Under the pieces are notes generated by a model. The model made no database searches and was not told the DNA's origin. It was given only the letters and a program-made list of their open reading frames with translations. The position numbers and the translations under genes are program-made. From IMG/VR virus record IMGVR_UViG_3300047159_000046: a stretch of 64,000 bases of DNA. The stretch is one strand, 5' to 3'. Numbering within the stretch: the first letter of the stretch is position 1; the number at the start of each line of letters is the position of its first letter. This DNA is from a virus. Taxonomy: Duplodnaviria > Caudoviricetes. Below are positions 36,558-55,697 of the stretch, piece by piece.

Positions 36558-37275
36558 TTTTAACACTTTTTGTTTGGGAAAGTCCCGAAAATTTCGTAAC
36601 TTTGTATGGTGCACTAAACCGAAAATGTTAAAATTGTGTTAAAATCTGCAAAGAAAAAACCTCGAAAATTTAACACTTTTTATTTGCTTTTGTACCGAAA
36701 ATTTCGTAACTTTGTATGGTGCGCTATTTTGGAATGTTAACGAAAGTTAAAATACGTTACAAAAATAGCCTGAAAATTTAACACTTTTTATTTGCTTTTG
36801 TACCGAAAATTTCGTAACTTTGTATGGTGCGCTATTTTGGAATGTTAACGAAAGTTAAAATACGTTACAAAAATAGCCTGAAAATTTAACACTTTTTATT
36901 TGCTTTTGTACCGAAAATTTCGTAACTTTGTATGGTGCGCCAAACTGAAAATGTTAAAACGAAAGTGTTAAAATAAGTGTTGCCGTTTTCTCCTGAAAAT
37001 TTAACACTTTTTATTTGCTTTTGTACCGAAAATTTCGTAACTTTGTATGGTGCACTAAACTGAAAATGTTAAAATAGTGTTAAAAAGTGTTGCCGTTTTC
37101 TCCTGAAAATTTAACACTTTTTATTTGCTTTTGTACCGAAAATTTCGTAACTTTGTATGGTGCACTAAACTGAAAGTGTTAAAATAGTGTTAAAAAGTGT
37201 TGCTGTTTTCTCCTGAAAATTTAACACTTTTTATTTGGAAAAGTCGCAAATTTTGCGTACCTTTGTATGACACCC
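36558..37275 (+). repeat. Tandem array of 7 host-type promoter units (period 108-115 bp), non-coding
   Basis: TTAACACTTTTTATTTG...CCGAAAATTTCGTAACTTTGTATGGTGC; -7 boxes at 36597, 36707, 36815, 36923, 37038, 37148, 37258. Confidence 0.85.
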
Positions 37276-37342
37276 AAAACTTAACTTTTTACACAACAAA
37301 AAAACAGAATAGTTTTTTGCTATTCTGCTTTTTTATATCTTT

Positions 37343-37537
37343 TTATATCCTACTTTTAAAAAAGTCGACATAATCTGCCCACTCTTTGAAATTTCGGGTT
37401 TTTTCGTAATCTTGTTTGGAAAGCCGTTTTTTAACTTAGGTGAAATAGTCACCGCCAATCCTATAATCGGCGACAACATAAAAACCCCTTTTGTCCTTGT
37501 TAAAAACCATACAGAGGCACTCAAATTCTTGTTTCAT
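37343..37537 (-). pseudogene. Short gene with internal TAA (37436-37438)
   Basis: MKQEFECLCMVFNKDKRGFYVVADYRIGGDYFT*VKKRLSKQ...KSRI*, with promoter and leader. Confidence 0.45.
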
Positions 37538-38231
37538 ACTACAAAACCGCTTTTTCAACCACCAGCAGTAGGTTCTAAGTTCATTTTCAATACACAAAGA
37601 TAACATAAAAATCTGATACTACCAAATTTTTACCTATCTTTTTTTGGGGTTTTTATATTTCGTTGTTGTATGTAATTGCGTGCGACTTTATAAGCAATAA
37701 CCAACACCAAAAATTTGGTATCACCGCCAAAACCATCCAGACCTCGAAATTGAAGTCTTCATTTGCCCATAACAAGCAACGGACAAATGAAGAATGTCAT
37801 AAACCCGTATGCGAATACAGAAGAAATACGACAAAAACTCTTTCATGAACTTTATAATTTTTAGTAGTACGTAGGGACTATTCCCAAACGCACTACAAAG
37901 ATAAGCCGTTTTTTAGATATATCCAAATATTTTGCCGATTATTTTCAATCTTTTTTTATTGTCCTTTTTGTGTGTGTTTGAATATCCTACAATAACACAC
38001 AATAACGAAAGAAACGGCAAATAAGGCACTTTAATTGCGTTTTGAGGGACTTTTGTATGAAATACGGGTAAACTAACTACAACGGGTCAATAATGCGCTT
38101 AAAACGCTTTAAAATGAATATCCGACAATTCCAAACATTCAGGAGAATTTTAACATACTTTAACATTTTTGAATACGGGTAAAAAAATAGGACTACTTTT
38201 TGTGTAGTCCTATTTTATTTTGTTTTATGAT

Positions 38232-38652
38232 TTAGCCTAAAATTTTTGTTTCTCCGCCATCTACCATATACTCAAAATGTTCTTCATTTGTGTCTATACT
38301 CCAAACGGGTGTATAATATGTAAAAAATCTGTTCACCGTTTGGATAAAAGTATGATAAATATGCCTCTTTTGCATTGTTTAGGATATGTAGTTCCCTATA
38401 TCTGTTAGAGCTATTTTTTCTAAACTCGCCGTTTTTCTTGATGTTTTTGCCATATAGCCACAAAACGCCTTTCACCATCTGCACATTGGTCAATTTGATA
38501 GGCAGAATATCAGCAATTAAATTGCTTATTTCCTTTTCATTTTCCTTACTCTTGTTCATTCTGTTTTTCAGTAACAAAATTTGCTTTTCAGTGGCAAAAC
38601 CTTGTTCTTTAATTGTTGCTACTAATTCTGCATTTGAAATTGTTTTTGCCAT
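38232..38652 (-). CDS. Paralog family A (GFATE.QI.L.K.R.NK), frameshift near 38330
   Basis: Homologous to 44861..45271 and 45434..45859; C-terminus YTPVWSIDTNEEHFEY...KILG lies in another frame. Confidence 0.7.
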
Positions 38653-38814
38653 AATACTAATTTTTTTTAATGTTTAAATGTTTTGTTTGTTCCCTTGAAC
38701 AATGCAAAGATACAAATAAAGTTCGGAAAAACAATAGCAAAAGTGTTAAAAATTTAATTATTTTTTTAACACTTTTTGTTTGGTATTGTCGGCAAAAAAC
38801 GTTACCTTTGTAGT

Positions 38815-38985
38815 GTAATTAAAAAAGCAACAATATGTAAAACTAAAAGCCACACTCAACAAGGCAAAACGACAACGGGAAACGGCATCACACCCGATTG
38901 ACAAATAAGGCGGTCGAACAATACGAAATAGGTGTTATAAAGTTACTATTTTGGGAAGGAGGAGACAAAACACGCACTTTTTTTA
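38815..38985 (+). ncRNA. Structured ncRNA family, copy A (ATG-TAA mini-ORF)
   Basis: Own promoter 38803-38810, covarying helices across six copies, ends in CACGCAC plus T-run. Confidence 0.7.
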
Positions 38986-39182
38986 AAAGTTAAAAAGTGT
39001 TAATTTTTTCCTGCGAACGAAAGTTTGGGGTGTCATACAAAGTTACGAATTTTTTGGGACTTTTCCAAATAAAAAGTGTTAAAATTCTGTTAAAAAATCG
39101 CCTGAAATTTTAACATATTTTAACGAAAAAAAAAACGGGCTCTCCATTTGGAAAACCCGTTTTTTGTTTATGTTAATTTCTG

Positions 39183-39533
39183 TTAAATCCCAATACGTTT
39201 TTCTATTGCTTTTTGCAAATCTGCATTATACCAATCCCGTGCCTTTCCTACAAAAAACGCTTTCATGGTATCAAAGTTTTTAAAATTAGCTTTTATGCCG
39301 TCCGTTATGATATTATTAAAATCGGACTCGTCTTGTGAATGTTTCCCACCCCAATCACGGATATCCCGTAGTTTTTGGTATGTTTCATACAACTTATAAT
39401 AAAATGTTTCACGTGAAACATTTAGTCGTAGCTGAGGTGCTTTATTTTGCCTCTTTTTAAAGTCTTCGGGTAAAAAATAATTGAACATCAAAAGGGAAAA
39501 TCTTTCATTAATCGATAAATTTTCAGTATTCAT
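39183..39533 (-). CDS. Hypothetical protein (contains parS)
   Basis: Cassette; NVSRETF is encoded by the parS site. Confidence 0.65.
   Translation of the reverse strand: MNTENLSINERFSLLMFNYFLPEDFKKRQNKAPQLRLNVSRETFYYKLYETYQKLRDIRDWGGKHSQDESDFNNIITDGIKANFKNFDTMKAFFVGKARDWYNADLQKAIEKRIGI
39405..39420. promoter_or_regulatory. parS: parS site 3
   Basis: Exact TGTTTCACGTGAAACA inside a CDS. Confidence 0.8.
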
Positions 39534-39676
39534 AATAACTTTATTTTAGTAGTACGTTGGGACTATTCCCAAACGCAAAACAAAGGTACAAAATGTTTTT
39601 TGAATAAACAAGAAAAAAAGTGAATATTTTATTAGGATATTCACTTTTTTTGTTTATAGGTTTTTTATATATATTA

Positions 39677-40114
39677 TTATATAGCTGCTGTTTGGGCTCT
39701 TTCTGTCTCCTCAACATCTACCAATGTATTCTTTTTGAGGTCGTTAAAAAGTTCGTCACAAAATTTAACGGACCTCAAAATATTATATCCAAAATAATGA
39801 TATAAGGAACTTTTCCTTTTTTCTAATCTTGTCGCAAATTCATTTCTATATCTATCAGCCTTTTCCAAATCGGCAAGGGTCAATGTTTTATTTTTATCAT
39901 ATAGTTGGGCTGCCCAACATACCATCTCGGTGAATGTTTCACGTGAAACATTTTCATCAAAAATCAAATAGGGTGGTATTTCCTCTGTTGGTACGTTGTC
40001 GCAAAAAGAGGACAACATATTGATGCTGAATTGCATATACTTTGCATACTCAGCATATTCACCCATGTTCATTACACCCTTGTTTGCCCACTTCTCAAAT
40101 CTGCTTAGTTTCAT
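39677..40114 (-). CDS. Hypothetical protein (contains parS)
   Basis: Cassette; NVSRETF is encoded by the parS site. Confidence 0.65.
   Translation of the reverse strand: MKLSRFEKWANKGVMNMGEYAEYAKYMQFSINMLSSFCDNVPTEEIPPYLIFDENVSRETFTEMVCWAAQLYDKNKTLTLADLEKADRYRNEFATRLEKRKSSLYHYFGYNILRSVKFCDELFNDLKKNTLVDVEETERAQTAAI
39935..39950. promoter_or_regulatory. parS: parS site 4
   Basis: Exact TGTTTCACGTGAAACA inside a CDS. Confidence 0.8.
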
Positions 40115-40466
40115 AACTTTTGTTTTTAGTAGTTCGGCACTATTGCCGTTTGATTATGCCACAAAGATAGACCAAATAAACCATATATCCAAATATTTTA
40201 TCAATTATTTTCAATTTATTTTCAATTCTTTTCTGCTTGCACCCGTGCGTGCGGATACTGAATTTGGTATCGGCTAAATTTAGCTGTTTTTAGCCCCACT
40301 ACGACACTTTCGGGTAAAAGTGGATAAAACTATTCACTTTCCACACAAAACGCTTTAAAATCGCTTAAAATAGCTTGTGTTGCGTTTCTTGATATAGTTG
40401 ATACACACAAAAAACGGCAAGAACATTCTGTTTGTCCTTGCCGTTTCTGTTATGATGTTGTATTCT

Positions 40467-40880
40467 TTATTCTGTTTCTTCCATCTCCAATTCATTTACC
40501 TTGTCCCAATATTCATTCAGTAAATTTTGGGCTTTTGCTATTGTTATTTTGTTGTTTTTTATAAACATTGAATATAGTCCCCAAAAAGCCAATTCTTGTA
40601 TATCTATTTTTTCTGTATTCTCTATATTTGTATTATACGCATTCACGCAAAATTGCAAATTTCCAGATACATAGGAAATTGCAAACTCTTTTGAGTCGCT
40701 GCAATCCATGCACCTGCGCTCTGCCTCTTCCCATGCCAATTGACTATAGTCGCATAGGTAGTTGGCATTCTTTATGCCGTTTTCCAGACCTTCTGTTATT
40801 GTGTTTATATCTGCATATATAGATATAAAAACCTCTGAAATCTGTTTTGCATAGCTGTTTGTCAATTCTGTCTTGTTCAT
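40467..40880 (-). CDS. Paralog family B
   Basis: MNK.ELT..YA..IS..F ... NLQFC..AYN ... KAQ.LL.EYW.KVNELE, shared with 47781..48188. Confidence 0.75.
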   Translation of the reverse strand: MNKTELTNSYAKQISEVFISIYADINTITEGLENGIKNANYLCDYSQLAWEEAERRCMDCSDSKEFAISYVSGNLQFCVNAYNTNIENTEKIDIQELAFWGLYSMFIKNNKITIAKAQNLLNEYWDKVNELEMEETE

Positions 40881-41059
40881 AATGTTTAATGTTTTATTGT
40901 TTTTGTTGATGCAAAGTTACAAATAAAATCGGGAAAAGCAAGAGCAAAAGTGTTAAAAATAAAAAGATCTTTTTAACACTTTTTGTTTGGAAAAGTCCCG
41001 AAAATTTCGTAACTTTGTATGACACCCTAAACCGAAAAAATTAACACTTTTTAACTTTT

Positions 41060-41240
41060 AAAAAAAGTGCGTGTTTTGTCTCCTCCTTCCCAAAATAGTA
41101 ACTTTATAACACCTATTTCGTATTGTTCGTCCGCCTTATTTGTCAATCGGGTGTGATGCCGTTTCCCGTTTTCTTTTTGCCTTGTTTTGTGTGGCTGTTA
41201 GTTTATGTTGTATTCATATTGTTTGTTGTTTCTTAATTGC
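41060..41240 (-). ncRNA. Structured ncRNA family, copy B (MNTT* at 41203-41217)
   Basis: Promoter 41245-41252; opposing promoter 41010-41017. Confidence 0.7.
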
Positions 41241-41961
41241 ACTACAAAGATACAAAAAAATTTTGAACTACCAAACAAAAAGCAAAAAAAAATTCAAAAA
41301 CCTAAAAAGATTTTTGAATTTTTATTGTCGTGAAATATTGCTACATTATATCAATGTTATATCACTTATCTCCGATAAAAAGATACTTTCTGTGTCGTTT
41401 CCATGTTTTACATATAGTTCATAATTAGTGCCATATTTATCGCTTGGTAGTGACCGCAAACGCAATAAATGTATATCAGTGACTACCATCACAATATCAT
41501 TTTTATTTCGTCAACTACAATTCTTGTCGGCACATCATAATTGTTGCCTTTTAGATATTCAACTATTTTAACATACATTTTCTGATGTTCTCTGCGCTCT
41601 GTGCGCTCAACTTCTGTTTCGTTGTTCATAACTTTTTGTTTTTAATTAATAATGTTCGTTATTTTCACTTGCAAAGATACAAAAGATTTTTGATATACCA
41701 AACTTTTTTGCCGTTTTTTTTGCGGTTTTTTTATAAATTTTCGTTTTGTATCAGTATATCAGTCATATATCTTTTTATCTGATTGAGGGTCATATTATCA
41801 AAATCAACATATTTTAACAATATTCTATGTTCGCTTTTGCCGTGCTTTAACCCGTAGCACTTTTTTAGACGGCAAATATTTCATTACAAAAGAGTCTCCT
41901 TTCTCCATATCGAAAATAAACCCTCTTTTTTCATCATAGCGCAAATTTTTGATATAGTTAA

Positions 41962-42234
41962 TCATAGTATGTTGCTCCTTTCCTCAATTTCTTCCAAACA
42001 TTTGGAAAGTGTTTTGTGCCCCAAATTAGGCATATTTAACGTTTCGTAGGGCACACCCGTTGTTTGTCCGTTTACATCAATTATACAAACATTATAATCA
42101 AGATATTTTTCCATCAACCCTATTTCCACTATAATATAGTGGCTCTTGCTGATAGTCGCAATCAGCGTGATTATTGGGGCTTGTGGTATCGTTTCTATAT
42201 GATACCTTTTTGCGACCTTGTATGTATGTTTCAT
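41962..42234 (-). CDS. Hypothetical protein
   Basis: Cassette with promoter and structured leader. Confidence 0.6.
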   Translation of the reverse strand: MKHTYKVAKRYHIETIPQAPIITLIATISKSHYIIVEIGLMEKYLDYNVCIIDVNGQTTGVPYETLNMPNLGHKTLSKCLEEIEERSNIL

Positions 42235-42601
42235 AACTTTATACGCTTTTTGTAACCATCAGCGTTAGGCTCTTGTTCGTTATTGTTGATGCAAAGATAT
42301 AGCTAAAAATTGATATATCCAAACATTTTTGCAATTATTTTCAATTTATTTTCTGTTTCTTTCTGCTTGCACCCGTGCGTGCGGATACTGAATTTGGTAT
42401 CGGCTAAATTTAGCCGTTTTTAGCCTTGATACGACACTTTCGGACAAAAGTGGATAAACTATTTATCTTTCACACAAAAACGCTTTAAAACGCTTTAAAA
42501 TAGCTTGTATTGCGTTTCTTAATATAGTTGATGCACACAAAAAAACGGCAAGAACATTCTGTTTGTGTCCTTGCCGTTTCTGTTATTGTGTTGTGTTTGT
42601 G

Positions 42602-43033
42602 TTATTCCAATACGCTGAACATTTTTGAGTCCCTTATATCTCTGATATTTTTGGCGTATTTAAGTACTTTAAACGCTTTTGTAATTGTCTCAATATCCTT
42701 TTTATCGATATTTCCGCAATATTGATATATCACTTCGCTATCATTAAATTTCATACGCAAAGTTTCATACGACAAATTTATTTTTATCATATTATATCCA
42801 TATCCATCATAAATCACCTCAAATTCTCCTCTGCTTTTTGAGGTTGTAAGGGATATATCAGTGCAATATTTTATTTCTTGTAACTGAGTCGGGACTGCAT
42901 AAGTCTCTTTTGAAATGTTCTTTAATAAACCTTTCAAAATTCTTACATCGTCTTTTTTTGTGGTAGTCTTGATAAACTTTTTGTTCAAAAGACCATCATT
43001 CAGTTTCAAATAAGAAAAATTTAGCTGTTTCAT
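42602..43033 (-). CDS. Paralog family C
   Basis: Homologous to 43667..44101 (LNK...ILK.LLK.I.K.T..VP...QEIK...DISL...K.RGEF...YDG). Confidence 0.75.
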   Translation of the reverse strand: MKQLNFSYLKLNDGLLNKKFIKTTTKKDDVRILKGLLKNISKETYAVPTQLQEIKYCTDISLTTSKSRGEFEVIYDGYGYNMIKINLSYETLRMKFNDSEVIYQYCGNIDKKDIETITKAFKVLKYAKNIRDIRDSKMFSVLE

Positions 43034-43219
43034 AACTTTAATAATTTAATTAGTATTTCTGTTTGTTGATGCAAAGTTACAAATAAAGTCGGGAAAAACA
43101 ATAGCAAAAGTGTTAAAAATTTAATTATTTTTTTAACACTTTTTGTTTGGAAAAGTCCCAAAAATTCCGTAACTTTGTATGGTGCTCTAAACCGAAAGTT
43201 TTAACACTTTTTAACTTTT

Positions 43220-43400
43220 TAAAAAAGTGCGTGTTTTGTCTCCTTCTTCCCAGAATAGTAACTTTGTAACACCTATTCCGTATTGTTCGTCCACCTTATT
43301 TTTGGTTAGGGTGTGATGCCGTTTCCCTAAATGTTTTTGCCTTGTTGAGTGTGGCTGTTTGTTTATGTTGTATTCATATTGTTTGTTGTTTCTTAATTGC
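43220..43400 (-). ncRNA. Structured ncRNA family, copy C (MNTT* at 43363-43377)
   Basis: Promoter 43405-43412; opposing promoter 43170-43177. Confidence 0.7.
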
Positions 43401-43666
43401 ACTACAAAGATAGTCATTATTTTTGATATATGCAAATTTTCAACCAATTATTTTCAAATTATTTTACGTTTCGTTTTTACCCGTTTTTAGCCTCAATACG
43501 GAACTTTCGGGTAAAAGTGGATAAAACTATTCACCTTTCACACAAAACGCTTTAAAAACGCTTAAAATAGCTTGTATTGCGTTTGCTGGTAGTTCTTGAT
43601 GCACACAAAAAAAAACGACAAGAACATTTTGTTTGCCCTTGTCGTTTCTGTTATTATGTTTGTTCT

Positions 43667-44101
43667 TTATTGTAGTACGTTGAACATTAATGAATTTCGT
43701 GCGTCTTGTAGTGTTTGTATATCTTTCAATATGCCAAATACTTTTATCATTATTTCTACATCATGTTTATTGATATGGCTGCAATATTGCGACAATATTT
43801 CTCCGCCGTTGTATTCTATTCTCAAAATGCCATGGGAAAGATTTATGATTATTTGGTTGTCCTCAAAACCATCATAAAAAATCTTAAATTCACCTCTTCC
43901 CTTTGTCGCTTTTAGGGATATATCTTTTCCTATCTTTATTTCTTGTACCTCAACTGGGACACAATTTGTAGCCTTTTTGATGCCCTTTAAAAGGCTTTTC
44001 AAGATAGACAAACATTCTGTGTCTGCTATATCGTTTATAAGCAAATTCTTGTTCAAAAAACCCTCTTTTAGGTGCATACATGAAAAACTCAATCTGTTCA
44101 T
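43667..44101 (-). CDS. Paralog family C
   Basis: See 42602..43033. Confidence 0.75.
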   Translation of the reverse strand: MNRLSFSCMHLKEGFLNKNLLINDIADTECLSILKSLLKGIKKATNCVPVEVQEIKIGKDISLKATKGRGEFKIFYDGFEDNQIIINLSHGILRIEYNGGEILSQYCSHINKHDVEIMIKVFGILKDIQTLQDARNSLMFNVLQ

Positions 44102-44309
44102 AACTTTAATGTTTAATTAGTAATTTTGTTTGTTGATGCAAAGATATATCTTTTTTCTTAATCTGCAAAATGTTTTGGGACTTTTTTTGAAAATATTTTA
44201 TGTTCGTATCTTTATGTACTGATACACAAAAAATAGCCGACTTTCACAAGCCGACTATTTCGCATTAAACATTAAATTAGAAATACAAAAATCATTATAT
44301 CATTCTGTT

Positions 44310-44627
44310 TCATTCCGTTTGTTCGCATAGTTCCGTTTGTTCCATTGGTATGCCTACATAATCTTTGTAACAAGCTATATTTTTGTAATAGTCATATTCG
44401 TCTACTACGTTGTCAATCAGTGGTAACCATTGCCCGTAATATTGATTTTCGGGCATCTCTGTATCAATTTCCTCTTCCCGATATGAAATATATCCATCAA
44501 ACAATTCCATAACACAGGTGGGGTCTATCTCAAAACTATTCAAATAGTCCCTTGCAAAAAGAGAATTGAGGGTTATTTCGTTTCTAAGTTTGCCGAATTC
44601 CTCTAATGTTAAAAATCTGTTTGCCAT
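44310..44627 (-). CDS. Paralog family D
   Basis: LR.E...NSL...DY.N...ID......FD.YI, shared with 54793..55143. Confidence 0.7.
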   Translation of the reverse strand: MANRFLTLEEFGKLRNEITLNSLFARDYLNSFEIDPTCVMELFDGYISYREEEIDTEMPENQYYGQWLPLIDNVVDEYDYYKNIACYKDYVGIPMEQTELCEQTE

Positions 44628-44860
44628 AACTTTGTTTTTTTAGTTAGTATAATATGTTCTTGTTGTCTTTCAACGCTACAAAGGTAGTTCTTATTTTTGA
44701 TATATGCAAATTTTCAACCAATTATTTTCAATATTTTTTTTATTTTGCTTTTCACGCATACATAAGGCGGATACTGATTTTAGTACCAAGCCGTTTGTAC
44801 TACACAAAAAAAATAGGGCTGCCCTTGTTGAGTAGTCCTATTCTGTTTTGTTTTGCGTTT

Positions 44861-45271
44861 TTAACCTATTATTTTAATATTATTAGCACCAATAATGTAT
44901 TGAAAACCCATAGAATGCGAAAATAAGTCATAAACACAATCATGGTAGGAATTACCATACGCATAAAACGACTTCAAATACAAATATTTTGGATGAGTGA
45001 CAACATATTCATCTTTAATCCCCAAAATACAATTTTTACGACAATCGCCATTTTTTTTGAAATTCTTATCATAAATCCACTTAGCAGCCTTGTTCTTTTG
45101 CTCTTCTGTTAATCGAATAGGCATAACACTATCAAGCAAATTAAACATTTCAGAGGCACTTTCATCGCTTTTGTTTATTCTCCTTTTAATTAGATTTATT
45201 TGCTGTTCAGTCGCAAAGCCTTGTTTCTTGATAGTTTTTACTAATTCAGAATTGCTAATCATTTTTGCCAT
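44861..45271 (-). CDS. Paralog family A
   Basis: MAKMISNSELVKTIKKQGFATEQQI. Confidence 0.75.
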   Translation of the reverse strand: MAKMISNSELVKTIKKQGFATEQQINLIKRRINKSDESASEMFNLLDSVMPIRLTEEQKNKAAKWIYDKNFKKNGDCRKNCILGIKDEYVVTHPKYLYLKSFYAYGNSYHDCVYDLFSHSMGFQYIIGANNIKIIG

Positions 45272-45433
45272 AACTTTTATGTTTTGTTGTTTTTGTTAAT
45301 GCAAAGATACAAAGAAAGTTCGGGAAAACAATAGCAAAAGTGTTAAAATTTCAAAGATCTTTTTAACACTTTTCCAAACACACAAAAATAGGGCTGCCCT
45401 TGTTGAGTAGTCCTATTCTGTTTTGTTTTGCGT

Positions 45434-45859
45434 TTATCCTACTATTTTCGTTTTGCCGTCTTGTTCCATATAATCAAAATATTCTTCATTTTCTGTCTCA
45501 ATACGCCAAACGGGTGTGTATTTGTTGTCTCCTTTGGTATAAAAGCAAGAAAGATAAGCCTCTTTTGCGTTGTTGAGGATATGTAGTTCCCTATTTCCCA
45601 AAGGACTATTTTTTCTAAATTCTCCGTTCTTCTTGATACTCTTGCCATACAAAGATAAAACCATCTTGACCATCTGCATATTGGTCACTTTAATTGACCA
45701 TGGCATTATCTCTGATATATATCCAAGAATTTTCTTTGCGTCTTGCTGATTTTTGTTCATTCTTTGTCTCAGCAACCTTATTTGTTTTTCAGTTGCGCAC
45801 ATATCTTGATGTCTGCTTATTTTCAACCATAAATCATAATTTTCAATTTTCTGTTTCAT
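45434..45859 (-). CDS. Paralog family A
   Basis: ATEKQIRLLRQRMNK...IKKNGEFRKNS; start MKQKIEN. Confidence 0.75.
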   Translation of the reverse strand: MKQKIENYDLWLKISRHQDMCATEKQIRLLRQRMNKNQQDAKKILGYISEIMPWSIKVTNMQMVKMVLSLYGKSIKKNGEFRKNSPLGNRELHILNNAKEAYLSCFYTKGDNKYTPVWRIETENEEYFDYMEQDGKTKIVG

Positions 45860-46021
45860 AACCTTTAATGTTTTGTTGTTTTTGTTGATGCAAAGATACA
45901 AATAATGTTTGAAAAAGCAATAGCAAAAGTGTTAAAATTTCAAAGATCTTTTTAACACTTTTCGCTTAAAATAAATGCCCAAAAGTTTTGCATATTACAG
46001 ATTTTTGCGTATCTTTGTAGT

Positions 46022-46199
46022 GTAATTAAGAAAGCAACAAATATGAATACAACGTAAACTAAAAAGCCACACAAAACAAGGCAAAGATAAAACGGGAAAA
46101 GGCATCGCACCCGATTGACAAAAAGCGGACGAACAATACGAAATAGGTGTTACAAAGTTACTATTTTGGGAAGGAGAAGACAACACACGCACTTTTTTT
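46022..46199 (+). ncRNA. Structured ncRNA family, copy D (MNTT* at 46043-46057)
   Basis: Promoter 46010-46017; opposing promoters 46254-46261 and 46364-46371. Confidence 0.7.
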
Positions 46200-46494
46200 A
46201 AAAGTTAAAAAGTGTTAAAACGTTCATACGAATGGACAGTTTTGGGTGTCATACAAAGTTACGAAAAATTTGGGACTTTTCCAAACAAAAAGTGTTAAAG
46301 TTTTACTTTAAATTATTCACACTAATTAACACTGTTTTAACACTTTAGATTTAAAGTGTCATACAAAGTTACAGAATTTTTTTGAAAAAAACAAACAAAA
46401 AGTGTTAAATTTCTCCTGAACTTTTTAACATTTTTTAACAAAAAAAACGGGTTCTCCGCTTGGAAAACCCGTTTTTCGTTTATGTTAATTTATG

Positions 46495-46831
46495 TTACTT
46501 ATTATACAACAATATCTTGATATATGTTTGTGCGCTGTCTGTGCAATCCCAAAATGATACTACCACCCCACTATCAGATAAATCAAACGGGTGTACCAAA
46601 TTTTCGTTCATTTCGTCCGCACTGCTATCTTGATTGGCGGGACACACCTCAAAATCGTAGTATGTTTTGTCCTCTGCATTTTGAATTAAAAAATGCCTCA
46701 ATTCGTCATTTATTATAGTCTCATTTATTTGCGTTTGCGACTGCGTCATATAATAAAAAGCGACCTCACAACTATCATTTCTGCTCAATTAAGTTAATAA
46801 ACTTTCTTGCACTGATTTTTGTTTTATTCAT
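46495..46831 (-). CDS. Hypothetical protein (frameshift near 46785)
   Basis: Start MNKTKISARKF after promoter; body in another frame. Confidence 0.5.
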
Positions 46832-46965
46832 AACTTGTATAATTTAATTAATATTGTTTTGTTGTCTTTCAACACTTGCAAAGATACTACTTTTTTTTAA
46901 TATACCAAACTTTTTTGCAAAAAAAATAAGAACTATTTTGTAGTTCTTATATATCTGTCTGAAAA

Positions 46966-47421
46966 TCAGAAATTAGGGTCTCTATAATTTTCGCAATAGT
47001 TGAACATAAAAATAGGGTTAAAAGATGTTCCACCCGTCTTTTCTGTTGGTCGCCATCTATTGTAAGAAAATTTAAAAGTTATTTCCCTTGCTGATAGAAT
47101 AGGAAATCCGTCATCGTCACAGTCCGTTATCGTGATAGTCTTTTTCTTTTCATTAAAAGCCAAAATCCTAAATGCGTACCTATCACTTCCGACAACTTCC
47201 GTGACGCATCCACCCAATTTTGGTGTTCTACCTTTTTCCCACTCCGAAAAACGCTTTTTCACCTCATCTATTTCTTTTTGAGAATAAAACCATTTTTTGT
47301 AAGTGTATTTCCCAAACGGGCAAGAAAATGACACTTTTGCCTCACGCTTTTTCATTCCATGCTCAATTTTCTTCCAATCTGAAAGAAATTCAATAACCGC
47401 TCCGCTTTTTGTGTTTGTCAT
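46966..47421 (-). CDS. Hypothetical phage protein (GSDRY...YRDP.F motif)
   Basis: Cassette ORF. Confidence 0.7.
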   Translation of the reverse strand: MTNTKSGAVIEFLSDWKKIEHGMKKREAKVSFSCPFGKYTYKKWFYSQKEIDEVKKRFSEWEKGRTPKLGGCVTEVVGSDRYAFRILAFNEKKKTITITDCDDDGFPILSAREITFKFSYNRWRPTEKTGGTSFNPIFMFNYCENYRDPNF

Positions 47422-47780
47422 AACTTTATTGTTTTTAGTTATTAATATTAATTATTGTATTTCAACACCGCAAAGATACAAAAGTTTTTGATAACTGCAA
47501 AACTTTTATCAATTATTTTCAAAGTTTTTTCTGTTTGCGTATGTGCGTGCGAGTACTGAATTTGGTATCGGCTGTTTGAGGCTGTTTTGAGCCACAATAC
47601 GGCACTTTCGGGTAAAAGTGGATAAAACTATTCACTTTTCACACAAAACGCTTTAAGGACGCTTAAAACAACTTGTATTGCGTTTTTTGATATAGTTGAT
47701 GAACATACACACACAAAAAAAACGGCAAGAACATTTTGTTTGTCCTTGCCGTTTCCGTTATTGAGTTTGTGTCCCGTTAT

Positions 47781-48188
47781 TTATTCTTCTTCCAACTCAT
47801 TGACCTTTGCCCAATATTCATCCAATAATTTTTGGGCTTTTGGCATCACAGAAGCAATATAGTTTTCTTCTTGTTGCATCTTTCCCCAATATGCCAAATC
47901 GTCAATCTCAATACAATTTTTTGAGTCGTGCTCATAACTATTTTCGTTGTAAGCATCAATACAAAATTGTAAATTGTTTTTGACAAAATCAAATTCCAAA
48001 TTTGGGTCACTTGATGAAATCATACAATCTGCATCGTCCGCTGCAATTTGATTAAAATCACAAAGTTCATCAGCGGTGACCTCACCCTCTTTCATACTGT
48101 CTGCAATATCGCCAGCATATACATCAATATCCTCAAATAAAGATGAAATACTCATTGCATACTTGTCTGTCAATTCTTGTTTGTTCAT
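47781..48188 (-). CDS. Paralog family B
   Basis: See 40467..40880. Confidence 0.75.
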   Translation of the reverse strand: MNKQELTDKYAMSISSLFEDIDVYAGDIADSMKEGEVTADELCDFNQIAADDADCMISSSDPNLEFDFVKNNLQFCIDAYNENSYEHDSKNCIEIDDLAYWGKMQQEENYIASVMPKAQKLLDEYWAKVNELEEE

Positions 48189-48306
48189 AACCTTAAATTT
48201 TAGTTTTGTTGTTTTACACTTGCAAAGATACGAAAGATTTTTGAACTACCAAACGTTTTTGCAAAAAAAAATAAAAAATATTTTAGTGCTGATTATGTAT
48301 CTAATT

Positions 48307-48657
48307 TCAAATCAGCGTAATATCCTCTAATTGACTAAGATAAAAACATTCTTCTTTTGTATTGTGCATCAATATTAATTCGTAATTTTGTCCATAACCA
48401 TCTTGTTTCAACGGGACAACTCGCAAAGATAATGTTTCGATGTTCCCTATAATCTTGATACCATCCGCATTGTTTTTCATTTTCAACACAATACGGGAAG
48501 GAAAAGCATAATTATTTGTTTGCATATAGTCCGTTATCTTTGTTTGCATCCTTTCGATATTTTCCCTAAGTTCCAAATTGGCATTGTGTTCTATTGCCTT
48601 TTTTTCAATATACTGCTCCAAAGGCATATCGGCTTCGTTTCTGATAAAACTACTCAT
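48307..48657 (-). CDS. Hypothetical protein
   Basis: Cassette ORF. Confidence 0.65.
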   Translation of the reverse strand: MSSFIRNEADMPLEQYIEKKAIEHNANLELRENIERMQTKITDYMQTNNYAFPSRIVLKMKNNADGIKIIGNIETLSLRVVPLKQDGYGQNYELILMHNTKEECFYLSQLEDITLI

Positions 48658-48986
48658 AACCTTGTTATTTAATTTTTGATACGCAAAGATACAAAAGATT
48701 TTTGAACTACCAAACTTTTTTGCAGATTATTTTGATGTTATTCTGTTCTCGCACATATAAGGCGGATACTGATTTTGGTATTCACCCGTTTTTACCCGTT
48801 TATTTGCGTTCTAACGAACTTTCGTATCAAAGTGGTACAAACTATCAACTACTATCAACAAAAGTCCTATAAATAGCTTCTATGCTATCATTTCGGCAAA
48901 TAAGTAGGCACACAAAAATAGCCGACTTTCACAAGCCGACTATTCTACTACTAATCTACTAAAAAGTTATGAATTGAAAAATATCT

Positions 48987-49889
48987 TTAATATATAAAAT
49001 GCACTTGTTCATCATTGTTGAATTCACACAAACAATTCTCGATGAAAAGTTTTTTGTCTTTTATTTCCAACTTCTTTATTTCAGAATATGCCCTAACTGC
49101 ATTTTCAGAGCAAATGATAACTTGTTTTGGCATCCCCTTTTCGTTGATAAGACTAATAAAATGCGTAGTTCTATCATTGAACTTTGCCTTTTGTGTCAAA
49201 TCATCCAAATAGTCTTCCAAACAATCAATAGGAACTGACTCATTATGATTAGTCGTATCTATTAGTATGTGTTCGGTACAATTATATTTGCAACTAATCT
49301 GTGCGGATATGATATCGTCTTTTGTGTCAATTATCCAACATTCGTCATCGTGAATCTGAATAAATCTCATTTCTCCGTCACTTGTTTTTTTCTTACAAGG
49401 ATACACACAATCAGCATTAATATGCATAATGATTTTATTTGCCTTAATATCCAATATGTTAGAGTTCCATATACAATGGTCACTTCCAACTTTTCTCGGG
49501 ATAAATTTGTTTTTTCCAAATCTATCAATGATATTATTTCATCGCCTCTATCATAGGAGAAAAGATTTTCAGATATATCTGTTATTGAATAAAACATAGA
49601 TACGTTATCTATATCCTCGCTAACTTTTTTTCCGTTACGCAAAAGAACTTCTTTATGACCATTTCCCAAATATTCGAATTCCAAAATAGCCATATCGTCA
49701 TTTTCTATCGTATTATGATATTTTAGCATTACGTTATCTATTGCTATTCTTGTATCAAATACAAGGTTACATTCTCCCGTTATTGCGTTCATATACAATA
49801 CGTTTGTATTTCCATCAACACTTCACTACATATAATGTATTTGTAAGCTGTTTCTTGATGTTCTGTGAAAAATCTGTTGCTGTTTTCAT
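48987..49889 (-). pseudogene. One gene broken by two frameshifts (~49815, ~49450)
   Basis: Start MKTATDFSQN after promoter; pieces 49367..49798 and 48987..49454 overlap in different frames. Confidence 0.55.
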
Positions 49890-50047
49890 ATTTACTTTTG
49901 TTTTTAGTTTTGTTATTTATTTACACTTGCAAAGATACAACTTTATTTTGATATACCAAACTATTTGCTGATTATTTTTACAAAAAAAATAGCCTACAAT
50001 TTTTTTACAAATTGCAGACTATTCTAACCAAAAACTATTTTAAAACA

Positions 50048-51070
50048 TTAGTAAATAAATCGCACGCTTACAATATCAATATCATTTATTTCGCAAATAG
50101 TCGTTCTAATTTCATTTCCGTATTCACAAGACAACGTTCCCGAAACCGCTGATATGCCAGCCCAATGGATATCTTTATACGCACTAACAAAATGCTGTTT
50201 TGTCTTGACAATAATCTGAATAGGACACCCTTTTGTTGAAAGCAAATCATTCAGTTCGTCAAATAGAAAATTGTTGTCGTTGTCGTTTGCCCTCACTATA
50301 CATTCTTCTTTATCCTTGTTCATAAGGGTAACAATATCATATAGTTCATCAGTCCTATAATCTTTTGCGTTTATCGTCACCTTGTCTTGCAACTCAATAT
50401 GATTAGGCTGATATTCACATGGGAAGCCGCCACCTTTCTCCTTGTTGTTTTTATCTACCAAATAGATAGTTTCCGAGTCTACAATAAGGATGCTAAAATC
50501 ATTTTCGTTCTCTATGTTCTCAAAACGCAAATAATCAACACTTTCACTCAATAACCATTTGTCTGTATTTACATTCCAAACGTTATAATAAACTTCGTTG
50601 TCCTTATTCTCCATTCTGATAGCATACAAATTTTTCCAATGATACATAATTGTACGTTCCTCTGAGCCATTCCAAAAAGGAATTACATTTGTATTTCCGT
50701 TGATATCTACAATATCTCTTGTTTCGTCAAATCTTTCAATCTGATAGTAATTCTGTGAATTTGTGACCAACTGGAAAAAACATTCTCTTTTATGATTTTC
50801 AGTGACCACCTCACTGCCTTTTAAAATCATATATCCATAAAGACCATCCAACTCTCTATCAATGATAGCCGCTTCGCCACTATTATACACAAATTTGATT
50901 TCCTCATCAGAGGCTTGGTCGTCATCAAAAACCAACTCTCCGTTTTGGGAATTTGTGTCCCTCATAAAAAACACATTATACTTGTTGTCTTTTTTTACCA
51001 CTGCAAAGTGGTTAGATACAACCTTTGCGTTATCGAACGCTGCCAATGACTCAATGTTTTTTGTTTGCAT
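50048..51070 (-). CDS. Hypothetical protein, beta-rich
   Basis: 340-aa cassette ORF. Confidence 0.7.
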   Translation of the reverse strand: MQTKNIESLAAFDNAKVVSNHFAVVKKDNKYNVFFMRDTNSQNGELVFDDDQASDEEIKFVYNSGEAAIIDRELDGLYGYMILKGSEVVTENHKRECFFQLVTNSQNYYQIERFDETRDIVDINGNTNVIPFWNGSEERTIMYHWKNLYAIRMENKDNEVYYNVWNVNTDKWLLSESVDYLRFENIENENDFSILIVDSETIYLVDKNNKEKGGGFPCEYQPNHIELQDKVTINAKDYRTDELYDIVTLMNKDKEECIVRANDNDNNFLFDELNDLLSTKGCPIQIIVKTKQHFVSAYKDIHWAGISAVSGTLSCEYGNEIRTTICEINDIDIVSVRFIY

Positions 51071-51474
51071 AACTCTATTTTTTTTAATTTAGTAATATTG
51101 TTTATTTCCTTTAACGCTACAAAGATACATCTTTTATTTTGAACTACCAAACTTTTTGCAGATTATTTTTGAATTATTTTATCCGACTTGATGGTATGTT
51201 CCTATCTTTGTTGATGCAAAGGTACAAACAAAATACGACAAAAGCAATAGCAAAAGTGTTAAAAAAAACATTGATCTTTTAACACTTTTTTCTTGTTTTT
51301 ATCCAAAATTTTCCGTAACTTTGTATGGTGCGCAATTTTGGAATGTTAATGAAAGTTAAAATCTGCAAAGAAAAATACCTCGAAAATTTAACGTTTTTTG
51401 TTTGGAAAAGTCCCGAAAATTTCGTAACTTTGCATGACACCCTAAACCGAACAAATTAACACTTTTTAACTTTT

Positions 51475-51670
51475 TTAAAAAAGTGCGTGTTTTGTCTCCT
51501 TCTTCCCAGAATAGTAACTTTGTAACACCTATTCCGTATTGTTCGTCCGACTTTTTTATTTGTTCGGGTGTGATGCCTTCTCCCGAAATATCTTTGCCTT
51601 GTTGAGTGTGGCTTTTAGTTTATGTTGTGTTCATCTTATTTACGTTTTTAGTTTAACTTGTTTCCTTTAA
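51475..51670 (-). ncRNA. Structured ncRNA family, copy E (MNTT* at 51620-51634)
   Basis: Promoter 51676-51683; opposing promoters 51316 and 51425. Confidence 0.7.
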
Positions 51671-51775
51671 CACTACAAAGATACAATTTATTCTTGACAA
51701 TACCAAACATAGGGACAAAAAAATAAGAACTATTTTCGTAGTTCTTATTTTCTTTATTGTTATATGTTTTGCTTG

Positions 51776-52966
51776 TTATTGCTCATCCTCAGTTTTGATA
51801 GTAGCTTTCAGACAATACATATCATTAAGTTCATCTATAATTGTCATAAACATACATTTTGAAGAACGTACCTCACAAACAATATCCACATATTTAGAGT
51901 TGATAAGTTCCAAAGTTTTTTGCACCCCTACATTCATTATACATTCATTTGTGTTGTCGTTTGTCCCACCGCACTCAATATTTGCGTTGAAAGATATTAC
52001 GTCTTTGTCCTCGCACTCTCCGAAAAGTCTCAAAGTATGATTTTCAAAACGAAATATTTGTTTATCATATTCATAAATCATTTTGTTTTGTACCTTGATT
52101 TTGTTAATCAAATCCGACTTGTCAATATGAGTGTATGTATTTGTATCGTCAATTTTTTTAGGGAAGAACGACAATACGTCTTGAATACCTCTCGCAATTA
52201 ATTGTTTGTGTTCCAAATTTACAGAAACATTGTTTTTGTATAAAAAGGTGATAGAAAAATCGCTTTGATATTGCGCATCTTTTGCCGACACAGCACTGAT
52301 ATTTAAACCAATACATTCTTTATTGTCTGCATACTCAATGATATTTTCAGTAACCTCTAATGGCAAGGCAAAATCGTTTTTCAGAATTGCGGTTTTGTTG
52401 TCAATAGTTGAAACATTCACATTCACAATTGTGTTGTCGTTTGTAGCCAATAATTGCAAAAGGTCATTATCATTCAGTACCACCATATCGGGATGGTTTA
52501 TAAAGCGGTTGCTTTGTTGTAACGCTTTCGCTTTCTTGATACAGCCGACAAACGTATCTACAATCCACTTTCCATCCAAACTTAGCTGATTATCTGCAAA
52601 TAGATATTTATTGACATCAAATTCGCCACACTGCATATCTGCATCAACATTGTTTTGATACAGACTCAAAACCCATGTTTGTTCTCCGTTTGAAACATAC
52701 AGCTTGTCGTCACCCTTTGTTTCCAACATCAATTCATTATTGCTTGTCGTTTTGATTTTGTTCAGTTCCCGTGCGGATATTTGAACCTTGCCCTTGTCGT
52801 CCTCAATATCTGCGGATATGGCTGAAAAACCATACCACAAATTCTCAATAACACATTTATTGTCGGTCTTGTTGCAACTCAATGCAATAATGTTATTTAC
52901 TTTGTTGTCGGCTGAAAAAAGATTGACAACCTTTTTGAAATTTTCTACACTTACTTTTGCTTTCAT
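51776..52966 (-). CDS. Divergent beta-sliding-clamp-like protein
   Basis: 396 aa; LQLLATND, FALP, FFPK...IDKSDLI line up with clamp motifs of the neighbouring gene. Confidence 0.45.
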   Translation of the reverse strand: MKAKVSVENFKKVVNLFSADNKVNNIIALSCNKTDNKCVIENLWYGFSAISADIEDDKGKVQISARELNKIKTTSNNELMLETKGDDKLYVSNGEQTWVLSLYQNNVDADMQCGEFDVNKYLFADNQLSLDGKWIVDTFVGCIKKAKALQQSNRFINHPDMVVLNDNDLLQLLATNDNTIVNVNVSTIDNKTAILKNDFALPLEVTENIIEYADNKECIGLNISAVSAKDAQYQSDFSITFLYKNNVSVNLEHKQLIARGIQDVLSFFPKKIDDTNTYTHIDKSDLINKIKVQNKMIYEYDKQIFRFENHTLRLFGECEDKDVISFNANIECGGTNDNTNECIMNVGVQKTLELINSKYVDIVCEVRSSKCMFMTIIDELNDMYCLKATIKTEDEQ

Positions 52967-53128
52967 AACTTTAACTTTTAATTTGGTTTTGTTTTACACT
53001 ACAAAGATACAAATAATATTGATAACTGCAAACTTTTCACACAATTATTTTCAATTTATTTAAAAAAAAGCTATCAGCAACATAATAGTCACTGATAGCC
53101 TCAATTTTAAAAGGATATAAAAATATGA

Positions 53129-54292
53129 TTAATTTGCGTACTTGTTATTCAGATAGCAAGGCATCAACATTGCAAAATCTATCTTTTCACCCTCAATACA
53201 TACGGCTCTGTTTGAATAGGACATATTCAATTTGATGTTTGATTTTTTAGGATATGAACTTACAATTTGATTTAATGCTTTCAAAGTGAAACGTATCTGA
53301 TATTCTCCTATTTCATTGTTTAGAATAGGTACGTTTGTGGACTTTTGATTTTCATCCGCAATATTGCTGATTCTTAAATTGTTGTCTGCAATATCGAAAG
53401 TAAGTTGATGGTCATCCAAATTTTTGTCGGTATATCCTTTTAATGCTTTCAAAAGCGCATCAACACTCAAAGTGATACTCTTTGTGTCGTCCTTTGGTAT
53501 TACCAATTCCACGTTTGGAAAATGTTCGTTTGCATCAACAAGAATACTATATGATAACAATTCTGTTTCTCCGTCATAAATCGTGAACACAAAATTTTCT
53601 GTATCTCTTTTGTCCACTGCAATACGGCTAATTTCCATTCGGTCGTATTTGTCAAATTTGGTGATAAGTTTGCATACTTGATTAGGTATTGTTATTTCTT
53701 TGTAGTCCTCATCCAAAGAAACGCTCTCAATATCATTTATCGCCAACACATGGGCATCAGTGGCGGTCATCTTTATCTTTTCGTCCTTTGCTCTGAAAAT
53801 ATCAACACAACACATTATAGGTCGGCTCATATCGTCCGAAACATACGAAGAAAAAAATGTTTTTATTTTGTCGCTCAATTCGGCATCTTTGATAGTACAA
53901 ACACTTTGGCTGATTTTGTCCTCTGCCAATATTTTAAAATGATTGATGTTACCAATTTTTATCTGCATATTCTCTGATTCCATATCCAATATTTCATCAT
54001 ACATACGCATATTAACTTCGGACTTGTTTGATAGAGCCGATACAAAATCATACAATGTATCAAAACCTATCACGGCATCCAAAATGTTTGAATTGGCATC
54101 CAACTCACATTTTGCCGTATTCAAGATATATCTTGCATTGTCTTTGCGGTCTTGCAAACGACAAACGCCATCTTTGTCTATAATCAGTTCACATTCTTTT
54201 GCCTCTTTGTTATTGTTGTCTTTCAACACAATATTCAAAGATTTTACTGCGCTTTTCAACTCCTTTGAAGAAATTTTTACACTTGTTGTCAT
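53129..54292 (-). CDS. dnaN: DNA polymerase III beta-clamp homolog
   Basis: 387 aa; VSDDMSRPIMCCV, MTATDAHVLA, ITIP, FPNVELVIPK, LLKALK, MLMPC match the DnaN signature. Confidence 0.8.
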   Translation of the reverse strand: MTTSVKISSKELKSAVKSLNIVLKDNNNKEAKECELIIDKDGVCRLQDRKDNARYILNTAKCELDANSNILDAVIGFDTLYDFVSALSNKSEVNMRMYDEILDMESENMQIKIGNINHFKILAEDKISQSVCTIKDAELSDKIKTFFSSYVSDDMSRPIMCCVDIFRAKDEKIKMTATDAHVLAINDIESVSLDEDYKEITIPNQVCKLITKFDKYDRMEISRIAVDKRDTENFVFTIYDGETELLSYSILVDANEHFPNVELVIPKDDTKSITLSVDALLKALKGYTDKNLDDHQLTFDIADNNLRISNIADENQKSTNVPILNNEIGEYQIRFTLKALNQIVSSYPKKSNIKLNMSYSNRAVCIEGEKIDFAMLMPCYLNNKYAN

Positions 54293-54469
54293 AACTTTTT
54301 TATTTAGTTTATAATGTTTATTTGTTGTCTTTCAACACAGCAAAGATACATATAATTTTTGATATACCAAACTATTTGCTGATTTTTTTTGAATTAAAAT
54401 GAAAAAATAAAGTTTTCAACAATTAATAAAATTTAACTTAAAAAACTTGCATTGTTCATAACAATTTTT

Positions 54470-54660
54470 TAAAAAAGTGCGTGTGTTGTCTTCTCCTTCC
54501 CAGCATGATAACTTTATAACACTCATGACGTATCGTTCTACCACCTTTTTGTTTGTTCGGGTGTGATGCCGTTTCCCGAAATATCTTTGCCTTTTTGTGT
54601 GGCTGTTAGTTTATGTTGTGTTCATATCGTTTGTGTTTTTAGTTTAACTTGTTTCCTTTA
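54470..54660 (-). ncRNA. Structured ncRNA family, copy F (most diverged; MNTT* at 54611-54625)
   Basis: Promoter 54667-54674; compensatory helix CATGA/TCATG. Confidence 0.7.
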
Positions 54661-54792
54661 ACACTACAAAGATACGCATAAATTTATACACTTCCAAATC
54701 TTTTGCAGATTATTTTCAAGAATATTTTAAACACAAAAAAGCGTACGACTTTCACAAGCCATACGCTCCCGTAATTAAAACAACAAACTAAA

Positions 54793-55143
54793 CTAAAAAT
54801 CAAAAGCTATGTATTTTTCGGCAATTTCTGCTTCCCGTATTGTTTCTTTGTCGCAATTAAGGAACATATCATTGTCGGAAGGTGCAATCTGTCTGTAAAA
54901 GTCAATCAGAGCGTTGTCATTGTCGTAATCTACTATCACGTCATACATATCAACACTTGATATATCAACTCCGTCCGCCACGGCATACTCGATGAGGCTT
55001 TCTATGTATCTATCAAAAAAGCGTTTTGTCTTTTCTGCATCTATGTTCAAAGTGTTTCTATAATCAGAAACGTCCAATGAATTGATAACGACCTCTCTCC
55101 GTAATTGTTTCAATTCTGCCGATGTCATATTTCTTTTTGCCAT
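54793..55143 (-). CDS. Paralog family D
   Basis: See 44310..44627. Confidence 0.7.
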   Translation of the reverse strand: MAKRNMTSAELKQLRREVVINSLDVSDYRNTLNIDAEKTKRFFDRYIESLIEYAVADGVDISSVDMYDVIVDYDNDNALIDFYRQIAPSDNDMFLNCDKETIREAEIAEKYIAFDF

Positions 55144-55220
55144 AATGATAATGTTTTTTGTATGTATTCTAAATTTATTGTTGTCGCACCCGTATATGTA
55201 CGGGTACTGAAATTAGTATG

Positions 55221-55697
55221 TTATAATATATCTGAGGGTTGCATTTCGTTCATCACAATAATCTTTGCAAATAGCTGTTTTGTCTTAACAAGCGTGATAT
55301 CCTTTTGATAAAATACATACCTATCTTTGATAGTGTAAACCTTGTCTCCGATATGTACCGCAAAACGGGTGAGGAAATCTTTGCCTTTTGAGGTTTCTAT
55401 ATTGTCTATTTTGCCACAAATAGCCATCCAATCCTTGTCGGCTAATGAGGTGATTTTGATATAGTTTCCACACTCGCCACCCCTTGGCGCATCATTTCCC
55501 GTTTCGTACTTGATATTCATTTCTTGCAATAAGGACAAATACTTGTTGGTATTGTTGATATTGCGTGAGTGTCTGCCATTGTGTCGGCATGATACGGGAC
55601 GGAATATCCCGTTTGACAAACCAAGCACCCAATTATGGATATCTTGATATACGTTGTCGTTTTTGGTGATGTGCAACTTCTTTGCTGCATCAATCAT
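55221..55697 (-). CDS. Hypothetical protein with GNDAPRGG motif
   Basis: 158-aa ORF. Confidence 0.6.
   Translation of the reverse strand: MIDAAKKLHITKNDNVYQDIHNWVLGLSNGIFRPVSCRHNGRHSRNINNTNKYLSLLQEMNIKYETGNDAPRGGECGNYIKITSLADKDWMAICGKIDNIETSKGKDFLTRFAVHIGDKVYTIKDRYVFYQKDITLVKTKQLFAKIIVMNEMQPSDIL

Follow-up and report, generated by a model that had tools for sequence, protein, structure and literature searches.

The stretch of DNA analysed here (the window, 64 kb; IMG/VR record IMGVR_UViG_3300047159_000046, Caudoviricetes) comes from an uncultured jumbo phage and contains six copies of an element of ~170-195 nt, in both orientations, which we found through repeat search, direct reading and alignments. 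The element is probably a functional RNA gene. Its copies share one promoter consensus and two hairpins with covarying stems, the strand is recognisable, there is no coding potential, and no known RNA family matches. We infer transcription, action in trans, a stoichiometric role and engagement of ribosomes. Our best reading, held tentatively, is that the element gives a high-dosage trans-acting small RNA (sRNA), a stoichiometric binder whose 5′ start-stop frame loads ribosomes.

Covariance model R1, built from the six window copies, found only these six in the window (190-204 bits, E 1e-36 to 1e-39); the next-best match had 18 bits, and the six-copy result is far beyond chance. An earlier sequence-only reading of this DNA had placed six copies at these sites, each with its own promoter, and both claims were confirmed, TTTG-N19/20-TA(T/C)CTTTG standing in front of every one. 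With the relatives described below, 25 full copies were available, and all of them have a TTTG-N20-TAnnTTTG promoter and an A-rich leader. Homology between the copies begins at the promoter and stops at the T-run or AU hairpin, which indicates that the duplicated unit is a gene-sized transcription unit. The same promoter type is found upstream of most small genes of the region, and TTTG-N17-23-TAnnTTTG has 75 matches in the window, densest at 32-60 kb.

The strand chosen in the sequence-only reading is also favoured here, because a G-U pair is present in all 15 distinct sequences and because the sense promoter is found everywhere while the antisense one is missing at copy F. The RNA is A-rich, with 62-65% purine. 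It had been called non-coding, and we agree, since frame-breaking indels separate the copies in the alignments; the only frame has 1-6 codons. Two other candidates were rejected: coding in another frame (the 26-codon +1 frame of copy B is broken by indels in the other copies) and origin from a gene start (no paralogous gene of the window starts with the sequence of the short frame).

The 3′ end of copies A-E is a 9-bp AU hairpin, GCACUUUUU/AAAAAGUGU, followed by a poorly conserved U-run. This hairpin is weak and terminator-like (about -7 kcal/mol; z -0.2 to -2.0), and its 3′ arm, read on the opposite strand, is a TTAACACTTTT box. The last part of each copy in the sequence-only reading, CACGCAC plus a T-run, turned out to be the 5′ arm of this hairpin in A-E and not a clean terminator. 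Copy F has a different weak 3′ flank, with no antisense promoter and no TTAACAC box after the element. A very AT-rich stretch follows the RNA. Antisense promoter units adjoin copies A-E, and not F, and aim at the 3′ end of the element; they are regarded here as an associated feature.

Covarying hairpins and the start-stop frame

The covariation set comprised 15 distinct sequences, with 500 shuffles and with partners slid by 1-3 columns as control. Standard pairs made up 92.7% of the paired cells, against 27-45% with slid partners. Six base pairs had changes on both sides, and none of the 500 shuffles reached the observed covariation score, which supports the two hairpins that the sequence-only reading had proposed.

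Helix 1 has three forms, CGGG/CCCG, UUCGGG/CCCGAA and UUAGGG/CCCUAA, and its 13-nt loop is constant in all three. Helix 2 (8 bp) has a fixed C-G and G-U frame, within which AAAUAG/CUAUUU, GAAUAG/CUAUUC or UCAUGA/UCAUGC is found; the third form has three double changes and one U-C mismatch. The variants of both helices are exactly as they had been written before. The stems of helix 2 vary at 6 of 16 positions and its 14-nt loop at one among the window copies (Y, position 7), with a second loop change in one relative. The purine-rich 3′ tail is kept constant alongside the 13-14-nt loops.

Leader, frame form, helix 1 type and helix 2 type are reshuffled among the copies, and despite this shuffling the helix halves are matched in all 25 full copies for both helices. 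The stem diversity reduces to three haplotypes for each helix, which recombination has shuffled. A pseudoknot between the GUGUU loop of helix 2 and AACAC on the 3′ side had also been suggested; the complementarity exists, but it never covaries, and one relative (L001) carries an uncompensated GGGUU. A long rod with a central bubble, as in the ~180-nt 6S RNA, was considered and rejected: the minimum-free-energy (MFE) and centroid folds have two short hairpins and no closing helix, and no Rfam 6S match was found.

The ATG is kept in 25 of 25 full copies, and the frame is closed after 1, 4 or 6 codons (M-stop in 3 copies, MNTT-stop in 15 and MNSNTT-stop in 7). Within the window the forms are those read earlier, ATG AAY ACA ACR TAA in B-F and ATG TAA in A. 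The copies differ by two substitutions only, AAT/AAC and ACA/ACG, both synonymous, and the two indels (-9 and +6 nt) are in frame; the earlier statement of synonymous-only changes holds, with the limit that the pattern rests on just two substitutions. By a rough count, the chance that all four events keep a short closed frame is ~0.01. A +1 shift in copy B would open a 26-codon frame into helix 1. Three strains retain the ATG TAA form, in which the start is followed by no sense codon. Clearly, then, the peptide can be dispensed with, and the conserved property is a start soon stopped.

Compared with all ATG contexts of the window, the 25 nt preceding the ATG reach the 92nd-99th percentile, and 51 real gene starts span a range that includes their scores. 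Considering that the leader scores like real start sites, ribosome loading, as assumed in the sequence-only reading, is plausible, and judging from the start context a ribosome very probably binds at the start of the frame if the RNA is made. An early stop after a start in a context predicted to initiate well, the arrangement of a bar-type minigene, is found in all three forms of the frame. AAC, ACA and AAT are common second codons in the real genes of the phage. The 3′ tail contains AAGGAG(G), which resembles a Shine-Dalgarno (SD) sequence; since the rest of the window has no depletion of motifs of this kind, we gave it no special weight.

Table 1. Positions of the six element copies and their parts in the window (start-stop frame, the ATG and its early stop codon)
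Feature	Position	Strand	Sequence or form	R1 score (bits)
Copy A	unit 38779..38984; RNA body ~38816-38984	+		190
Copy A, promoter	TTTG 38779-38782; TACCTTTG 38803-38810	+	TTTG-N20-TACCTTTG	
Copy A, start-stop frame	38835-38840	+	ATG TAA	
Copy A, adjacent antisense promoter unit	39038..39082	-	TTAACACTTTT box, TTTG, N20, TAACTTTG	
Copy B	unit 41060..41275; RNA ~41239 down to 41060	-		204
Copy B, promoter		-	TTTG-N19-TATCTTTG	
Copy B, start-stop frame	41203-41217	-	ATG AAT ACA ACA TAA	
Copy B, helix 1	41165-41168 with 41148-41151	-	CGGG with CCCG	
Copy B, helix 2	41113-41120 with 41091-41098; 14-nt loop 41099-41112	-	CGAAATAG with CTATTTTG	
Copy B, 3′ AU-rich hairpin	41035..41070; arms 41062-41070 with 41044-41052	-	GCACUUUUU with AAAAAGUGU, then UAAUUUUUU	
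Copy C	unit 43221..43435; RNA 43221-43399	-		203
Copy C, start-stop frame	43363-43377	-		
Copy C, helices		-	helix 1 UUAGGG/CCCUAA; helix 2 CGGAAUAG/CUAUUCUG	
Copy D	unit 45990..46199; RNA 46023-46199	+		191
Copy D, start-stop frame	46043-46057	+	ATG AAT ACA ACG TAA	
Copy E	unit 51477..51706; RNA 51477-51670	-		204
Copy E, promoter		-	TTTG-N20-TATCTTTG	
Copy E, start-stop frame	51620-51634	-	ATG AAC ACA ACA TAA	
Copy E, helix 1		-	UUCGGG/CCCGAA	
Copy F	unit 54471..54697; RNA 54471-54661	-		197
Copy F, start-stop frame	54611-54625	-		
Copy F, helix 2		-	CGUCAUGA/UCAUGCUG; three double changes and one U-C mismatch	

Related strains and genomic setting

One metagenome scan gave nine loci, and three more contigs were found via a neighbouring protein. 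These relatives hold 19 further full copies and one cut by a contig end, and all belong to strains with 85-97% identity to the window that were sampled in activated-sludge and wastewater metagenomes. The 25-kb contig behind loci L003 and L009 contains copies F, E, D and A, without B and C. In L103 five copies are present and the B cassette (element plus downstream 137-aa gene) is relocated, and in L007 a left flank of A/D type is joined to the right flank of E across an element. The copy number per strain is therefore at least 4-6 (4 in the contig behind L003 and L009, 5 in L103 and 6 in the window).

Contigs of three runs skip 589 bp (45328-45918) between copies of one gene-upstream repeat, and one run skips 1067 bp (42598-43666); both are cassette-level deletions between strains in a region of ORFans, and further joints in the RNA-library contigs likewise fall at repeats. 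Considering the relocations and the indels at repeats, the region behaves like the hyperplastic regions of T4-type phages that are shuffled by PeSL cassettes (promoter plus terminator stem-loop).

Searches beyond these strains were negative. Megablast against INPHARED matched no phage. Scans of IMG/VR with four conserved patterns found no copy, and the 87 loci fetched gave 0 R1 matches. GTDB genomes were scanned with three patterns, which returned either nothing or chance matches over unrelated phyla, with no host match. The neighbouring proteins have relatives only at >=90% identity. For the sliding clamp, an exhaustive HMMER search of 1.84 billion representatives revealed no relative between 91% and 30% identity, and the element is absent from the contigs of the two best distant clamps. 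In Rfam 15 the whole window had 0 matches at gathering score, and none of the 12 weak matches at E<=5 over 36000-55500 overlaps a copy, so the earlier claim of no known family stands even at that threshold.

Phage DNA was found in bioreactor sludge, activated sludge and wastewater runs of 11 studies and not in gut samples, and the gut and Bacteroides setting assumed before has to be replaced by these habitats. The host is probably a member of Bacteroidota, to judge from the promoter consensus and from A-rich leaders without an SD. This agrees with translation initiation in Bacteroidia, which is SD-independent and A-rich; ribosomes of Bacteroidota ignore SD sequences (PMC6847099, PMC7797042).

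The region has a GC content of ~31-36%, and no tRNA gene was found in the window. Replication genes of the window encode a sliding clamp (53129-54292), an SbcC-like protein and a thymidylate-synthase-like protein. Small ORFans of no Pfam or PHROG family surround the elements, each with its own promoter and most with strong hairpin terminators. Copies A and D face the other way from all genes around them and stop at convergent terminators, an orientation that relatives share; B, C, E and F are co-oriented with a downstream gene, and near-identical elements stand before unrelated genes. The leader of copy E is 16 nt longer, and copy F has the upstream gene's terminator (54737-54770) on one side and, on the other, the promoter that belongs to the sliding-clamp gene.

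Three paralogous pairs were found among the ORFans, none with a Pfam or PHROG match: 40467-40880 and 47781-48188 are 42% identical, and 42602-43033 and 43667-44101, as well as 38284-38652 and 44861-45271, are visibly alignable. The 11-mer TTAACACTTTT occurs 28 times, all within 36.5-51.5 kb (36542-51456). Face-to-face pairs of it stand upstream of at least five small genes (38749/38766, 40956/40973, 43116/43133, 45346/45363 and 45935/45952), with a further pair at 51262/51279; these sites look like operators for a regulator of one promoter class.

At 36559-37237 (+), and on to ~37335, a 110-bp unit is repeated 6.2 times in a tandem array; it is composed of a TTAACACTTTT box, a TTTG-N20-TAACTTTG promoter and a short segment in which more GTGTTAA-like boxes lie. 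From the last promoter of the array a transcript of ~65 nt is predicted, ending at a good hairpin terminator near 37300-37335. The unit is also present, single or double, beside element copies A-E, and the array could be promoters, iterons or short RNAs. Elsewhere, at 31058-31429, the window has GC-rich tandem repeats whose periods of 44, 89 and 138 nt are nested (consensus starting GCCCTGTCAGGTACC; local GC 43%). Two adjacent proteins of 1064 and 809 aa (7475-10669 and 10675-13104, minus strand) both match phrog_25468, of unknown function, in several stretches, and GC is locally 41-43% around 7475-13104.

Proposed role and alternatives

In the role that we propose, each gene would be expressed from an early promoter of host type, giving a mostly single-stranded, A-rich RNA of about 175-215 nt. 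The RNA would work in trans as a sponge or decoy for a host or phage factor recognising the invariant loops or tail, and the need for stoichiometric amounts would account for 4-6 copies with strong promoters. A ribosome would be loaded on the start-stop frame and might thereby stabilise the RNA or contribute to the titration; the frame would also keep ribosomes from entering and unfolding the hairpin region. The unit is independent of orientation and neighbour, is present in 4-6 copies and has conserved loops and single-stranded tracts, and a trans-acting RNA needed in quantity fits this best. A stand-alone sRNA gene would be expected to have a promoter and a 3′ end of its own, no coding potential and a conserved structure; what was observed here is a promoter, the absence of a long frame, two covarying hairpins and, at the 3′ end, only the weak AU hairpin.

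Several results weigh against this proposal. No canonical GC-rich terminator was called at any of the six copies, which leaves the 3′ end uncertain and the RNA length at about 175-215 nt. The MFE z-scores are -0.57 (B), -0.25 (F) and -0.73 (antisense of B), so the whole RNA folds no better than shuffled sequence and ~70% of it is predicted single-stranded; the "folded domain" of the sequence-only reading was overstated for a mostly unstructured RNA (z -0.25 to -0.57). The covariation comes from ~five independent double changes, all in one lineage at 85-97% identity. Conservation between strains is 0.90 for the element vs 0.89-0.905 for the flanks, with no sign of stronger purifying selection on the element, a test blurred by gene conversion. 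We found no complementary target longer than ~13 nt in the window and none matching the invariant loops. Three metatranscriptome runs and one raw-read run were mapped on 38000-55500: RNA-library contigs cover these 17.5 kb evenly (30 of 30 bins), with DNA carry-over possible, the raw-read run gave one read, and the greater depth at the elements is explained by repeats fitting several places; these runs give no support to the high expression supposed in the sequence-only reading.

Among the alternatives, a local module acting in cis survives best, and we consider it unlikely. The element would be a convergent sense/antisense switch, or a leader or antitermination RNA (HK022 put-like) tuning the adjacent early gene cassette. 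Five of the six copies are followed, ~45-80 nt past the T-run, by an antisense promoter unit plus TTAACACTTTT boxes; the four co-oriented copies have no strong terminator, and the B element moves with its 137-aa gene in another strain. Yet F has no antisense promoter, every downstream gene has a promoter of its own, and the genes behind near-identical elements are unrelated. A put-like leader would have the same orientation as its operon. Copies A and D oppose all genes and point into convergent terminators, remaining intact and in the same orientation across several strains, and for this reason we reject the cis leader.

The sink resembling the lambda bar minigenes, proposed in the sequence-only reading, is rather improbable. 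Massive translation of the 4-codon frame would free peptidyl-tRNA or tie up ribosomes or release factors and so shut down host translation; toxic minigenes sequester tRNA (PMC2490762). A frame of 1-6 codons in a start context typical of phage genes, an ATG kept in every full copy, with in-frame indels and synonymous changes, and strong promoters in multiple copies, which suit a dosage effect, are consistent with it. Against it, the last sense codon ACA is the commonest Thr codon of the phage (45%), so that a sink for tRNA-Thr(UGU) would starve the phage too, and the window has no tRNA gene. Three copies persist with ATG TAA, where no sense codon follows the start, and ~140 nt of conserved RNA after the frame, its two selected hairpins included, would be left without explanation.

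We also give little probability to the absence of any RNA function, in which the element would be a repeated relic (a decayed early gene start plus spacer), gene-converted and at most a homology patch for shuffling. The hyperplastic region with paralogous ORFan pairs and many repeated promoters and terminators agrees with a relic, as do the strain indels and relocations with junctions in repeats, elements included, the resemblance of the short frame to ordinary gene starts, and a conservation between strains no better than that of the flanks. Against a relic, PeSLs consist of a promoter and a terminator stem-loop (PMC2839356), and no conserved transcribed body of 175 nt is described for them. 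Compensatory stem changes with constant loops require selection on a folded single strand, and matched halves in every full copy despite module shuffling would not be expected of a relic.

A primer or R-loop RNA of a replication origin, comparable to T4 oriF/oriG and ColE1, in which a purine-rich transcript would be hybridised beside an AT-rich unwinding stretch, is very improbable: the purine content, the AT-rich stretch after the RNA and the orientation-independent placement among replication genes (sliding clamp, SbcC-like) beside iteron-like TTAACAC boxes agree with it, but six homologous origins within 16 kb have no precedent known to us, sequence-conserved hairpin loops are not a feature of R-loop origins, and the GC skew has no local switch at the copies.

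Returning to the trans-acting sRNA, we might speculate further, with low expectation, that it represents a new class of phage RNA engaging host translation, with SD-independent ribosome loading on the start-stop frame and two invariant loops that would trap a defence or ribosome-associated protein, amplified to 4-6 copies as an early stoichiometric trap in a Bacteroidota host. To our knowledge, information on RNA-based takeover or anti-defence is almost absent for phages of Bacteroidota. Provided that the RNA is made and binds a host factor, the early takeover of a host by an uncultured jumbo phage could be approached through it, and RNA databases would gain a new family; the significance is limited by the one narrow lineage and the uncultured host.

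Comparison with known systems

Phage-encoded small RNAs are few and mostly single-copy, and we know of no described dispersed family with 4-6 promoter-driven copies and a conserved start-stop frame. The element is a candidate new RNA family of the phage small RNA kind, so far within one uncultured lineage; its unusual features are the dispersed multicopy genes, the start-stop frame and the module shuffling with matched helix halves.

Sponge or decoy RNAs include those of CsrB/RsmZ type, and phage mimics include pseudo-ToxI of phiTE and the RNA anti-CRISPRs. The likeness lies in stoichiometric binding, which is proposed for the element, and in dosage reached by repeating the binding unit; some of these RNAs are phage-borne and early. 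They differ in carrying tandem short motifs in one transcript, or in mimicking a known host RNA (CRISPR repeat, ToxI), whereas the element is repeated as whole dispersed genes; no RNA that it might mimic could be recognised, and GTDB genomes gave no host match.

Dual-function sRNAs and 5′ stabilisers such as the STAB-SD of cryIIIA bind ribosomes. The element would share 5′-proximal ribosome binding, as predicted, on a largely non-coding RNA. In contrast to them, it has no SD, and its initiation would follow the SD-independent A-rich mode (PMC6847099, PMC7797042). Its frame of 1-6 codons is too short for a functional peptide.

Lambda barI and barII are very short frames on phage transcripts, and the element resembles them in having such a start-stop frame on a predicted transcript with a strong promoter. 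Toxicity of the bar type comes from peptidyl-tRNA drop-off and tRNA starvation and depends on Pth. The bar minigenes are not multicopy RNA genes with conserved structured bodies, however, and in the element the last sense codon is the favourite Thr codon of the phage and some copies have no sense codon past the start.

The PeSLs of T4-type phages are likewise repeated regulatory sequences in a hyperplastic early ORFan region (PMC2839356, PMC4122927), and recombination between repeats gives indels and relocations in close strains, as in L007, L103 and the contig behind L003 and L009. We considered the element as a PeSL cassette and rejected it, because a PeSL, as far as it is described there, comprises only an early promoter and a terminator stem-loop and has no such transcribed body. 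The element has no GC-rich terminator stem-loop, and after its promoter comes a conserved body of 175 nt that carries the start-stop frame and the two covarying hairpins. The PeSL-like part is the set of generic promoter and terminator repeats around the element, and not the element itself.

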